Part shown: one piece after another, positions 23,004 through 35,346 of the stretch
Layout of the letters: each line of letters opens with the position of its first letter
Numbering within the stretch: the first letter of the stretch is position 1
Assembly (NCBI GenBank): GCA_037134395.1
Contig: JBAXMH010000001.1
Location: forward strand, 1-55,453
Direction: 5' to 3'
Length of the DNA stretch: 55,453 bases
Origin: Chloroflexales bacterium
GTDB lineage: Bacteria > Chloroflexota > Chloroflexia > Chloroflexales > Chloroflexaceae
Translations under genes and position numbers: made by a program
Notes under the pieces: generated by a model
The model's database searches: none
The model's input: the letters and a program-made list of their open reading frames with translations, nothing else
Told to the model about the DNA's origin: nothing

Positions 23004-23753
23004 ATGGATTTCACGGGGCAAGTGGCGATCGTCACCGGCGGATCGCGGGGGATCGGGCGAGCAGTGGTACGCGATCTGGCCCGCCGGGGCGCACAGGTGC
23101 TATTCTGTTACCGTGAGCGCACCCAGGCTGCGGCAGAAACTCTGGCATTGGTCGCGGAATCAGGTGGTGTGGTCGAGGCCATGCAGGCAGATGTGGCCAA
23201 CCCAGCGGCTGGCCCGGCTCTGGTGAGTGCCGTCCTTGAACGTTGGGGACGACTGGACATCCTGGTGAACTGCGCCGGACATGCAAGCTATGGCCCGATC
23301 GAAGAGATGAGTACGGCCCGCTGGCGTGATGTGCTGGCCACAAACCTGACAGGCGTGTACCATACCTGTCGGGCGGCCATGCGACCGATGATGCAGCGAC
23401 GTTATGGGCGGATCATCAATCTCTCGGCGCTGCACGCTAACGGCGGGTTTCCTGGCCAAGCCGACTACTCGGCAGCCACGGCGGGTGTGCAGGGATTCAC
23501 TCGTTCGCTGGCCCGTGAGGCGGCGGCATGGTCAATTACGGTAAACTCGGTGGCTCCGGGATTTGTAGATACCGAATTGCTTAACCCGCTACCAGACGAA
23601 GTGCGAGCGTGGGGCGAGGGGATCATTGCGATGCGCCGCTCCGGGCGACCAGAGGAGGTTGCGGCGGCGGTCGTCTTCCTGTCATCCTCGATGGCCTCGT
23701 ACATCACGGGGCATACCTTGGCAGTTGACGGTGGCTGGAGGATGGCGGGGTAG
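23004..23753 (+). CDS. FabG-like SDR paralogue lacking catalytic Ser and Lys
   Basis: TGGSRGIG Rossmann motif present; IINLSA and YSAAT replace IGS and YxxxK; AGGAGG SD. Confidence 0.85.
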   Translation: MDFTGQVAIVTGGSRGIGRAVVRDLARRGAQVLFCYRERTQAAAETLALVAESGGVVEAMQADVANPAAGPALVSAVLERWGRLDILVNCAGHASYGPIEEMSTARWRDVLATNLTGVYHTCRAAMRPMMQRRYGRIINLSALHANGGFPGQADYSAATAGVQGFTRSLAREAAAWSITVNSVAPGFVDTELLNPLPDEVRAWGEGIIAMRRSGRPEEVAAAVVFLSSSMASYITGHTLAVDGGWRMAG

Positions 23754-23775
23754 ATCAACGAGGCGTATCAGAACA

Positions 23776-23826
23776 CCAAGAGGGGCCGCAGGCACAACGC
23801 CTGCGGCCCCTCTTGGCACTTTTTTT
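23776..23826 (+). terminator. Rho-independent terminator, possibly bidirectional
   Basis: Perfect 18-bp stem CCAAGAGGGGCCGCAGGC/GCCTGCGGCCCCTCTTGG, 5-nt loop, then CACTTTTTTT. Confidence 0.85.
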
Positions 23827-24353
23827 GATTTCCCTACCTTTTACTGGTCTTGCTAGGTTCGTCCGAAGTCCGTCGTCGTCCATCCGCCTGAGCGTACAGG
23901 GAGTCCGTCTTCCGAGCGTACAGAGCTTGACGCCTCAAGAGATCAGGCCCGCCATATTGTGTCCCTCTGCCAGCTTACTCATCTGTGCAAACCCTTGGCT
24001 GCCCTCCAGTCAATACGGCCATCGTCCCCCGCCTTACGGCGGTGTGACGGCAGTCGCTGCGTCGGCTTTTGCCTTTGGGTGTGGCTCCGATCTCGGCGTA
24101 GGATTCTTGTTGTGTTCCTTACGCGGTGAGCTTTGCGCGAGAGGCGGTCATCTTGCTCGCACAGCATCCAATCGCTACATCAGCGATCCGGCGCTTGTCT
24201 GTTAGTCTCCCTGGCGAGGCCGCGCCTGCCATTTCCCCTAACACACGCCTTGTCTCTGTAATTCATTTTACAGTAGGGGTCGGCGCTTGCTGTCTGACCA
24301 CACATGTTCGGCTGTACAGGTTCGCTGGTCGGTTGCTGTTCTTTTAAGGCTTC
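23776..24353 (-). ncRNA. Candidate large structured non-coding RNA (~530-580 nt), family not recognised
   Basis: Own promoter at 24360-24388, many consecutive hairpins, no credible ORF, ends at the 23776-23816 hairpin. Confidence 0.5.
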
Positions 24354-24359
24354 GAGGTC

Positions 24360-24388
24360 ATAATAGCACTACAACGCCCAAAAATCAA
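24360..24388 (-). promoter_or_regulatory. Sigma70-type promoter pointing into the non-coding region
   Basis: Minus strand TTGATT (24388-24383), 17-nt spacer ending TGC (extended -10), TATTAT (24365-24360). Confidence 0.6.
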
Positions 24389-24487
24389 GAGGTTAATCGC
24401 AAGTTAACGATGATAGGGGTAGATTTTTGGATGAAACGACGATCTGTGGCACTGTAATACCAGGAATATGTTGGGCTGTAGTAATGT

Positions 24488-25996
24488 CTAGTGTAAAGAC
24501 TTTTTTGCGCTGTCGGCGGCAACTCGCTCGGCGATAGCCCTACCTGACAAGAGGACGAGAGGGATACCACCGCCGGGATGCGTGCCGCCACCGACGAAGT
24601 AGAGATCGCGCAATCTGTGGGCGCGCAGGGGCGGGCGCATAAATGCTGAGAAGGGATTATTCGAGGAGAGGCCGTAGATCGCGCCGCCTGCGGCGTTGTA
24701 GCGGCTCTGGATGTCTTTTGGGGTCCAGATCTGCTCGTAGACAATGTGCTGACGCAGGTGATCCAGTCCCATCCGCTCCAGTTTGGCCAGCACCAGATCA
24801 CGATAGGGCGCAGCCTCCTGAGACCAGTTGACTCGTTGGCCAAGGGCGGGTGCGTTGACGAGGATGAAGAGGTTCATGTGGCCGGGGGGGGCGTGCTGCG
24901 GGTCGCTCAGGCAGGTTGCGGCCACATATACGGTGGGGTCAACGGCGGGAACTCCCTTCTGGAAGATTGCCTGAAACTCACGGGGGTAGTCGGCGCTGAA
25001 AAAAATATTGTGATGGGCCAGATGTGGGTAGGTGCGATTCACACCCAGGAAGAGGACGTAGCCGCTACAGGAGGGCTCCAGACGGGCGAGACGACGGGCG
25101 GTACGCTCGTGATCGGGCAGGAGGGCTGCGTAGGCGTAGCGCGGGTCGGCATTGATGATTACACGGGCCGCTGGAATGCGCTCGCCACACTCCAGGCGTA
25201 CCCCGCAGGCGGCACCGCGATCGTGCAGTACCTCGGCCACGGTGGTACTGGTGCGGATCTGCACACCCAATTCCTCGGCGAGGCGAAGCAGGGCGCGACC
25301 CAGTTCGTACATTCCGCCGCGCACATACCAGCCACCCTCGGCAAACTCGATGTAGGCGATCACGTTGAAGGTTGCCGGTGAGAGGTAGGGCGACGAGCCG
25401 TTGTAGGTCGCGTAACGGTTGAAGATCTGGCGCAGGTAGGGGCTGCGGAAGTAGGCGCGCACGGCTGCATCCACACTGCGTAGCGAGTCGATCTGTGGGC
25501 CATCGCGCAGCAATCGGGGCGTGAGGAGCTCGGAGATGCCATCGAAGGGCTTGAGCAGGAAATTGTCGGCGACAGCGGCGTAGATCCGGGCGCTGTAGGC
25601 GAGAAAACGGAAGAGGCCAGGGACATCGGGCGGACTAATGCGCTCGATCTCCTGGATGAGTTGAGGCAGGCGCTGCCAGGCGTGAAAAATCGTACCATCG
25701 GGCCAGGTATAGCGGCAGGTCGGCTCAATCTGATCGAGGTGGAGGTAATCCTCCATGCGCCGTCCAGCGGCGGCGAAAAGATCGCGGATAACCCAGGGCA
25801 TGGTCAGCAGCGAAGGGCCGGTGTCGAAGGTATAGCCCTGCTCCTGCACAAGGTTGAGCTTGCCACCGACACGCTGGTTCTTCTCAAGGAGCAGGACGGA
25901 GTGACCGACGGCGGCGAGGCGAATAGCGGCAGCCAGGCCACCCAGGCCGGCCCCGACGATGATGGTTTGATCTTTCACAGGAGAACCCACACACAT
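24488..25996 (-). CDS. CrtI-family phytoene desaturase/carotenoid oxidoreductase
   Basis: IVGAGLGGLAAA FAD motif, FDTGPSLL, YFVGGGTHPGGGIPLVLLSG; start may be GTG 25978; subfamily unresolved. Confidence 0.9.
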   Translation of the reverse strand: MCVGSPVKDQTIIVGAGLGGLAAAIRLAAVGHSVLLLEKNQRVGGKLNLVQEQGYTFDTGPSLLTMPWVIRDLFAAAGRRMEDYLHLDQIEPTCRYTWPDGTIFHAWQRLPQLIQEIERISPPDVPGLFRFLAYSARIYAAVADNFLLKPFDGISELLTPRLLRDGPQIDSLRSVDAAVRAYFRSPYLRQIFNRYATYNGSSPYLSPATFNVIAYIEFAEGGWYVRGGMYELGRALLRLAEELGVQIRTSTTVAEVLHDRGAACGVRLECGERIPAARVIINADPRYAYAALLPDHERTARRLARLEPSCSGYVLFLGVNRTYPHLAHHNIFFSADYPREFQAIFQKGVPAVDPTVYVAATCLSDPQHAPPGHMNLFILVNAPALGQRVNWSQEAAPYRDLVLAKLERMGLDHLRQHIVYEQIWTPKDIQSRYNAAGGAIYGLSSNNPFSAFMRPPLRAHRLRDLYFVGGGTHPGGGIPLVLLSGRAIAERVAADSAKKSLH

Positions 25997-34601: not shown

Positions 34602-35117
34602 ATGGAAGCGATTCAGAAATTTCTGTCAGATCTGGTGCCGATTCTCCAGGCTTTAGGCGTGTTTCTTGGAGCCTACTTGGTGTTGCTCTGGGCGGCGTCG
34701 GTGCTGTGGGCCTATCGCGATATTCGACGGCGCAGCGAGGATGTGTCGGTGCAGGTGCTTGCTGTTGGCCTGGTGCTGCTGCTGCCCTTTGTCGGTATCC
34801 CACTGCACCTGATCCTGCGCCCGCCACAGACCTTGTCCGAAAAGTATGAACGCTCGCTTGAGGAAGAATACCTGCGCAATGATATTGAGGAGAAGTATGT
34901 CTGTCCGGAATGTCAGCGCCCAATTGAGCCAGACTTCATCCTCTGCCCGCACTGTAACACCTCCCTGCGCCGTCGCTGTAGCGGCTGTGCGCGGGTGGTC
35001 GATCTGACCTGGAGCATCTGCCCGTACTGCGGCGATGATGGTACAACTGCCTCGCGCCAGGCACCTACGATTCAGGCGAGCAACTACAGGCCACCGGTTG
35101 AGAAAACCACGCGCTAA
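34602..35117 (+). CDS. Membrane protein with double zinc ribbon
   Basis: Two hydrophobic segments, then CPEC, CPHC, CSGC, CPYC. Confidence 0.85.
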   Translation: MEAIQKFLSDLVPILQALGVFLGAYLVLLWAASVLWAYRDIRRRSEDVSVQVLAVGLVLLLPFVGIPLHLILRPPQTLSEKYERSLEEEYLRNDIEEKYVCPECQRPIEPDFILCPHCNTSLRRRCSGCARVVDLTWSICPYCGDDGTTASRQAPTIQASNYRPPVEKTTR

Positions 35118-35124
35118 TGTGAAC

Positions 35125-35346
35125 ATAGCCGATAGCCGATAGCCGATAGCCGATAGCCGATAGTACTATAGTTGTAAATATCTTCGCAGAAAGGCTCCCG
35201 CCGATCACCCCCCTCAATCCCCCCGCAAGCGGGGGGAGGTTGGCACGTATGTCCCCCCCCGCTTGCGGGGGGGCTAGGGGGGGTAAGCCAAACAAACTAC
35301 AATTGTCGTAATAGCCGATAGCCGATAGCCGGGCGTTAGCGGCTAT
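35125..35346. repeat. (ATAGCCG)n array interrupted by a cruciform REP/MITE-like insert
   Basis: 5 units 35125-35159, 3 units 35311-35331, inverted CGGCTAT 35340-35346; double-hairpin element 35207-35284. Confidence 0.8.

Follow-up and report, generated by a model that had tools for sequence, protein, structure and literature searches.

A large structured RNA of the Chloroflexales, apparently of an undescribed family, encoded behind a carotenoid desaturase gene

The stretch of Chloroflexales DNA analysed here (the window, 55,453 nt) encodes on its minus strand what is almost certainly a genuine structured non-coding RNA, apparently a member of an undescribed family of large structured RNAs with a new predicted fold and no homologue of a catalogued one. 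Its gene extends from 24353 to 23776, some 580 nt, and comprises a promoter, an upstream box, a core of about 420 nt, a variable tail and a terminal hairpin. It is located in a 734-nt spacer, flanked on one side by a crtI-family gene (24488-25996, minus) and on the other by the end of a convergent fabH-fabD-fabG-fabG run, and is present as a single copy in its own genome, as determined by BLAST and, concordantly, by the covariance model R2. The initial annotation had proposed a stand-alone large structured RNA at this site, and conservation, covariation, Rfam scans and RNA contigs bear this out. The features of the locus, with helices as predicted, are as follows:

24488 to 25996, minus strand: phytoene desaturase family gene (crtI family), the upstream neighbour (TIGR02734, 447.6 bits against a cut-off of 238.1).
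24396 to 24411, minus strand: operator-like box ATCG-N8-CGAT (here ATCGTTAACTTGCGAT), 7 nt 5' of the -35 element and centred at about -50.
24360 to 24388, minus strand: sigma-70/sigma-A-type promoter, conserved in homologues, with -35 TTGATT at 24388-24383, TG at 24368-24367 and -10 TATTAT at 24365-24360.
23932 to 24353, minus strand: conserved RNA core of about 420 nt, closed by helix P1 (24350-24340 with 23942-23932).
23971 to 24314, minus strand: helix P2 (24314-24310 with 23975-23971), which closes a three-way junction with P3 and Px and is fully paired in type-C paralogues.
24144 to 24301, minus strand: four-way junction domain P3-P6, the most conserved part, with P3 closing it, P4 at 24286-24245, P5 at 24242-24201 and P6 at 24195-24163.
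23982 to 24142, minus strand: 3' domain, in which helix Px (24142-24135 with 23988-23982) leads to a three-way junction whose other arms are P7 (24131-24084) and P8/P9 (24082-23989).
23817 to 23931, minus strand: 3' tail, variable and with little structure, containing short repeats (CTGTACGCTC twice) and 7 GGA.
23776 to 23816, either strand: 18-bp hairpin, terminator of the convergent fab operon (plus) and likely 3' end of the RNA (minus).
23004 to 23753, plus strand: fabG-like SDR, last gene of the fab run and convergent downstream neighbour, which differs between homologues.

The RNA region gave a minimum free energy z-score of -2.85, with none of 100 shuffles equally stable. Long-range pairs were picked by mutual information across 44 homologues with less than 90% identity, yielding a model of 84 pairs. 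Across the 28 sequences of alignment A1, 87.8% of 2314 cells were paired and two-sided changes were found at 52 of the 84 pairs; neither figure was reached by any of 500 shuffles and slid partners paired at 34-39%, the model being derived from the sequences on which it is scored and the shuffle control taking no account of relatedness. For these two reasons, a better check is afforded by seven type-C paralogues outside A1, which, when folded without constraints, adopted the same topology (P1, paired arm, P2, P3/Px junction, P3-P6 and Px-P7-P8). Both conservation and covariation, which the initial annotation had suggested looking for across relatives, were found. No crossing helix of at least 4 bp with more than one covarying pair was detected in the 44 homologues, and hence no covarying pseudoknot, while G-U cells on the RNA strand numbered 207 versus 47 A-C cells, a measure that is partly circular. 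As had been claimed, the region has no credible open reading frame: 409 of the 502 gap runs in the alignment break the frame and 93 are multiples of three, and the longest stop-free stretch on the sense strand varies from 36 to 128 codons across homologues. No antisense match longer than 16 nt at full identity was identified elsewhere in the genome.

Within the predicted fold, the closing helix P1 is 93% paired, with two-sided changes at 6 of its 11 pairs, and the arm between P1 and P2 is loosely paired and poorly conserved in type A but largely paired in type C (types are defined below). Support is strong in the four-way domain, where P5a is 100% and P6 98% paired, P3 presents two-sided changes at 9 of 9 pairs, invariant G-U pairs occur in P4 and P6, and two CAAGCG repeats each run into a helix of the junction, again P4 and P6. 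The symmetric 6x6 purine loop of P5 reads GGGAAA/GGGAGA in 17 of the 44 homologues and is otherwise purine-rich, and a GUAA loop is found within the P4 arm in 29 of the 44. P7, P9a and P9b are well supported in the 3' domain, whose P8/P9 arm carries an AAAA/A internal loop; the weakest helices in type A are Px (57-65% paired in MAFFT alignments), which is recovered in paralogues, and P8 (72-82%), and a GUAA hairpin at 24042-24029 is an insertion restricted to close relatives. Conservation follows this architecture, with 37 of the 51 positions conserved at 95% or more falling in the four-way domain and a single one in the loose P1-P2 arm. Invariant bases are found at junctions and internal loops, and the long single strands are devoid of them.

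The transcript had initially been read as a chain of stems. It is replaced here by a nested multi-junction architecture, in which five of the ten stems put forward are wrong because the true helices are long-range. When the stems were scored on the 44 homologues, TGGC/GCCA (91% paired), GCGTAAGGA/TCCTACGC (84%) and ATCGCT/AGCGAT, which is part of P6, were retained. Two others are confined to close relatives, CCGCC-GTAA-GGCGG (found in 7 of 44) and CTGTAA/TTACAG (50% paired). GACCA/TGGTC (39%), TGTGCGAG/CTCGCGCA (47%) and GCCGTATTG/CAATATGGC (38%) found no support, nor did CCCCTA/TAGGGG (66%), whose 3' strand pairs elsewhere at 100%, and the CTTGA of the supposed CTTGA/TCAAG stem is the 3' strand of the conserved helix P1. 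The closing helix, the long-range P2, P3 and Px, and the upstream box at 24411-24396 were absent from that annotation, whereas the repeats it listed (CAAGCGCCG, CTGTACGCTC and AGACAAG, each twice) are all present.

Transcription is predicted to start at 24353. The TTGATT-17-TATTAT promoter with TG recognised at the outset is present at 24388-24360 and kept in homologues, with the -10 element placed 6 nt ahead of the core in 42 of 44 non-redundant homologues and the orientation the same (RNA strand) in all three types; taken alone, the pattern is weak evidence, since one instance was found versus 0.4 expected by chance. The upstream box, whose sequence admits both an inverted-repeat and an 11-bp direct-repeat reading, occurs with at most one mismatch in all 44 homologues, and also in the diverged copies of family f2; each of the 44 thus has a promoter and a box of its own. 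It is the top-scoring site of the genome (28.5 versus 19.2 for the runner-up) under a matrix that is partly circular, because it was built from 49 boxes chosen by pattern. The matrix scan of the genome returned no second strong operator-box site, so that no regulon is seen.

Tails and 3' ends were analysed in 39 of the 44 homologues, leaving out five cores for which 3' trimming failed. Tail length ranges from 11 to 224 nt and total RNA length from 394 to 667 nt (n = 39). Roseiflexus has almost no tail and Chloroflexus a short one without repeats; the GGA count of the tail reaches 10 in some Chloroflexaceae, and TGTACGC is present in 14 of the 25 tails longer than 40 nt. The tails of loci L008, L009, L014, L019, L020 and L072 consist of units of about 29 nt repeated 2-5 times, the 8-mers of which show no genome-wide enrichment. 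Some of these units, as DNA, presumably resemble the Gram-positive LexA box. The 18-bp hairpin noted earlier is present at 23776-23816, and its U-tract sits on the plus strand, the side of the fab operon, the minus-side tract being as weak as had been stated. A strong hairpin follows the core in 32 of the 39 homologues, with at least five T among the next 8 bases in 8 of the 32.

Eight RNA runs contain the stretch or part of it, and seven were compared, leaving out X19 with its small share. Metatranscriptome contigs cover 23834-24229 (X6), 23831-24215 (X7), 23819-24183 (X9) and 23819-24283 (X15), a single 516-nt contig in X14 spans 23819-24334, and pieces reach 24297 in X13 and 24342 in X20; the DNA run X1 continues through both RNA ends. 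This cover fits the predicted transcript, contigs being silent on strand, exact ends and level, RNA libraries possibly holding DNA and the runs having been picked because they contain the stretch. The contigs of X9, X14 and X15, from two studies, end at 23819, where the DNA run goes on, a weak hint of a 3' end, and one relative's contig in X13 spans the hairpin (23078-23877). No evidential weight is given to depth in X13 (25000 for the pieces versus 204 on the fabG-side contig) or to the absence of RNA cover over crtI, because genes cannot be ranked by contigs and the choice of runs depended on the stretch itself. Adaptor-ended RNA contigs in X13 had raised the possibility of processing near 24190, which was rejected, as X1 also breaks there (24186-24200). 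Elsewhere in the window, around 35113-35254, X1 shows a repeated element with very high summed DNA contig depth and many loose ends and joints.

The closest named records are those of uncultured Oscillochloris (L084; crtI 96%, fabG 98%). BLAST matched the stretch in 29 of 61 relatives, its own genome included, and a search for the core pattern produced 77 GTDB matches, 62 of them confirmed by the A1 profile and 15 unconfirmed. Confirmed loci come from Chloroflexus, Oscillochloris, Chloroploca, Roseiflexus, Kouleothrix and unclassified Chloroflexota, plus one labelled Gracilibacteria. The latter (L056, titled Candidatus Gracilibacteria) carries the RNA in the crtI/fabG order of the Chloroflexales and is probably mis-binned or mislabelled. 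A crtI-family gene lies upstream in 60 of the 62, the remaining neighbours vary, and most loci have no same-strand gene downstream of the RNA. The crtI gene was found in 131 of 150 genomes of the order, and in family f3 and genus g27 it occurs with no RNA following it; among 14 inspected crtI loci without a model match, 13 had no RNA copy behind crtI, 2 of these carrying an ambiguous leader. The linkage may therefore be one of evolutionary inertia.

Model R2 matched 91 of the 150 genomes of the order: 50 of 61 in f1, 31 of 61 in f4 (taken as Chloroflexaceae and Roseiflexaceae, respectively, from matching named records), 10 of 15 in f2, none of 13 in f3 and none of 25 in genus g27. We assume that f2 is probably Kallotenuaceae and f3 probably Herpetosiphonaceae. 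One f4 match is a chance one, so that 90 of 150 Chloroflexales genomes carry the RNA; R2 also overlooks true copies, for instance in G027. The copy in that genome (L190:1177-1648, minus) is syntenic, 472 nt long and highly diverged, keeping box, promoter, P1 and P2 around a rewritten interior. Outside the order, R2 returned weak matches only, in 2 of 113 genomes from other orders of the class and, among the other 137 genomes of the phylum sample, in 2, and phyla beyond Chloroflexota were searched by exact patterns alone, so that distant relatives could escape. Weak R2 matches at L144, L183, L184, L185, L202-L205, L286, L321/325/327 and G231 were judged chance or ambiguous. In a genome of the same phylum and another order (G311; L341:1501-1566, plus), a P5-like purine-loop hairpin (25 bits) precedes an open reading frame, with the rest of the core missing. 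A metagenome scan yielded at least 117 loci; among the matches listed, 16 were confirmed and 101 were not, and 12 of those 16 share neighbours with known types. Twelve of 13 matches in a viral collection were unconfirmed, the remaining one being a truncated copy. This copy (L211) lacks the promoter and the 5' strand of P1 and lies beside a 447-codon open reading frame, which we take to resemble a phage portal gene; the contig is probably an assembly chimera.

Three types of locus can be distinguished. In type A (f1, f4) the RNA lies behind crtI, as it does in type B (f2) except at L141; type B is marked by a long P6 and shares the upstream box. A second copy carried by Roseiflexus and by some relatives forms type C; it is flanked by a divergent SDR-purL pair and by a metalloprotease-like gene, and its promoter region differs from that of types A and B. 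At L143:1335-1410 (plus) and other type-C loci, conserved TGCA-containing repeats about 11 bp apart precede a TTGTAA/TATACT promoter; since type C has its own conserved upstream motif, a second, different regulator is likely. Locus L167 (G337, about 1900-2850, plus) is a tandem duplication in which both copies have box and promoter and the first is much diverged. In genus g22 (L191:500-900, plus; L192:1080-1500, minus), the position behind crtI is taken by a different promoter and a leader of about 330 nt ahead of a conserved open reading frame of about 50 codons; this leader has no Rfam or R2 match and may represent either a separate element or the remnant of a decayed copy. Judged from the genomes at hand, the family is restricted to one order, in which several genera have lost it or carry highly diverged forms.

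Comparison with known families began from Rfam 15, the check recommended with the initial annotation, which for the window and 29 loci (E≤1 to 5) gave chance matches only, to the terminal hairpin or to hairpins lying beyond the core, whereas the RNase P locus L034, used as positive control, was detected. The exclusion of tmRNA and RNase P made initially is upheld, as separate loci exist elsewhere in the genome: a 6S RNA above cut-off on contig C11, a tmRNA on C156 and an RNase P-like match below cut-off on C131. ARAGORN reported no tmRNA in the window, and R2 does not match the tmRNA and RNase P-like loci. The RNase P-like match itself (L034, G000:C131:8230-8677, plus) extends over 448 nt and reaches 54.9 bits where the cut-off is 100, which suggests a divergent or expanded RNase P RNA.

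OLE RNA is a chromosomal RNA of about 580 nt with a closing 5'/3' stem, a multi-way junction core, purine-rich internal loops and a lipid-pathway neighbourhood. The Chloroflexales RNA is similar to OLE (RF01071) in all these respects, size included, but has a four-way junction and a symmetric P5 loop where OLE has a five-way junction and a kink-turn at P5, and belongs to a different phylum. The RF01071 model had no match in 5 genomes, nor in its control, and cmscan of the window and loci was negative. Both OLE and raiA are large, junction-rich, trans-acting ribonucleoprotein RNAs (PMC12286853, PMC12968392, PMC10861870), and the raiA motif (RF03072) shares with the present RNA a single locus, a long closing P1, junction-centred conservation and, probably, action in trans (PMC12968392, PMC10861870). 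However, the Chloroflexales RNA is twice as long, its P3 is a long-range helix with covariation and not a hairpin, no pseudoknot was detected where raiA has PK1 and PK2, and its neighbours are crtI and fabG instead of comFC and raiA. The RF03072 model, run without a positive control, found no match at the loci in 5 genomes (E≤10), and homology to raiA, considered because of a resemblance, was rejected on topology and model. OLE and raiA are moreover widespread, in contrast to an RNA confined to one order. ROOL and GOLLD are likewise large and ornate, with A-rich loops and potential intermolecular bridges through GNRA loops (PMC12286853), but they are linked to phages or prophages and pseudoknotted, whereas the present RNA is chromosomal, without covarying pseudoknot or Rfam match. 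Ms1, CoRP and 6S are also stand-alone RNAs with paired ends, CoRP being of similar size; the Chloroflexales RNA differs in having no conserved central bubble and no HAD-IB neighbour. Homology to Ms1, prompted by a nearby TadA-like ATPase, was rejected, as the Ms1 model matched none of the loci while its positive control scored 239 bits. The Chloroflexi-1 motif (RF01698) occurs in the same host group, listed only for Chloroflexus aggregans in the available part of PMC2864571, and gave no Rfam match on the loci, Chloroflexus-type ones included. The literature searched, mostly open-access and exclusive of the motif supplements of PMC5737381 and PMC11109978, contains no earlier description of the RNA, and it is not listed in one supplement of PMC8632094.

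The reading that we tentatively favour is that of a stand-alone RNA, from a family absent from Rfam, that has a predicted compact multi-junction fold and would act in trans as a scaffold or sink for proteins, in the manner of OLE or raiA. Action in trans is suggested because most loci have no same-strand gene downstream and duplicates bring their own promoters, and a compact fold because conservation sits in junctions and purine loops. A sigma-A-type promoter, probably under a dedicated factor acting at the -50 box, would produce an RNA some 580 nt long whose 3' end is the shared hairpin. As the covariation shows, P1 joins the two ends and P2 closes a three-way junction, from which the P3-P6 four-way and the Px/P7/P8-P9 three-way junctions branch. 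By analogy with motifs known from other RNAs, the P5 loop may stack sheared G-A pairs and, together with the GUAA and AAAA/A loops, provide A-minor contacts packing the helices, possibly into a dimer or oligomer. The folded particle could then bind proteins and tune a stress or membrane function, as hinted by the lasting link to a carotenoid desaturase gene; this last step is weak, since crtI is also kept where the RNA is missing. In some Chloroflexaceae, the repeat tail might serve as an accessory multivalent binding module.

Several other explanations were weighed against the scaffold or sink. An RNA polymerase binder of the Ms1/CoRP type, in which the P1-P2 arm would imitate an open promoter and keep polymerase in reserve or stable, seems unlikely. 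Its closing 5'/3' helix with a loose internal region and a size near that of CoRP (516 nt, PMC11077062) would suit such a role, and RNAs of this kind share little sequence and have evaded searches (PMC9130861, PMC11077062); nevertheless, the two loose strands contain 1 of the 51 conserved positions, the arm is largely paired in type C, the Ms1 model is negative despite its working control, and the genome has a 6S elsewhere and no HAD-IB gene beside the RNA. The concentration of 37 of 51 near-invariant bases in one junction domain and the invariant G-U pairs of P4 and P6 could instead denote a new ribozyme or ligand-binding RNA acting in trans, with the four-way junction as active site or pocket. 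Large junction-rich bacterial RNAs are often catalytic, which also counts in its favour, but this reading is quite improbable, given that no Rfam ribozyme or riboswitch matched, no covarying pseudoknot and no regulated gene downstream were found, and there is no credible processing site, DNA and RNA contigs breaking at the same place.

It is very unlikely that the sequence is a 3' element of the crtI transcript, stabilising or regulating carotenoid synthesis, with the internal promoter giving a by-product or a 3'-derived small RNA. The same-strand crtI gene upstream at 60 of 62 loci agrees with it, as does the minus strand from crtI to the RNA, in which no terminator-like site was seen; the conserved promoter and box, a tandem duplicate that has a promoter to itself, the copies not adjoining crtI (L141 and type C) and a conserved fold of 420 nt, well beyond what a stabiliser needs, do not. 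Protein sequestration by a multivalent RNA, raised in the initial annotation, fits the repeats of the 3' tail and nothing else, and these are missing in Roseiflexus, Chloroflexus and others. A CsrB/RsmZ-type sponge was accordingly rejected as a candidate, the repeated, GGA-rich tail (up to 10 GGA) being a trait of some Chloroflexaceae and CsrA being found in none of 5 genomes, with a control detected in 3 of 14. Because no long conserved single strand is present either, we regard a CsrB-like sponge or a base-pairing small RNA as highly improbable.

To our knowledge, few classes of large, highly structured bacterial non-coding RNAs have been recognised. Such classes have tended to turn out as ribozymes, core machinery or new quaternary structures. 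The broad kind, a large orphan structured RNA, is already known, and what is new here is the family and its predicted fold rather than a mechanism. Cultured carriers exist in Chloroflexus islandicus and Oscillochloris trichoides, with the RNA also in Roseiflexus records; the short natural forms, with a core of about 360 nt, are suited to cryo-EM and probing, the nearly unique operator box is a direct handle on the regulator, and natural losses and duplications offer comparisons. A bolder possibility, which we consider rather unlikely, is that this is the first large ornate RNA class of the Chloroflexota, with a fold unlike any described, a junction that is catalytic, ligand-binding or engaged in RNA-only self-assembly, a dedicated transcription factor and paralogues specialised in Roseiflexaceae. 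If the scaffold reading is true, the Chloroflexales RNA would represent a rare new class of large bacterial RNA.
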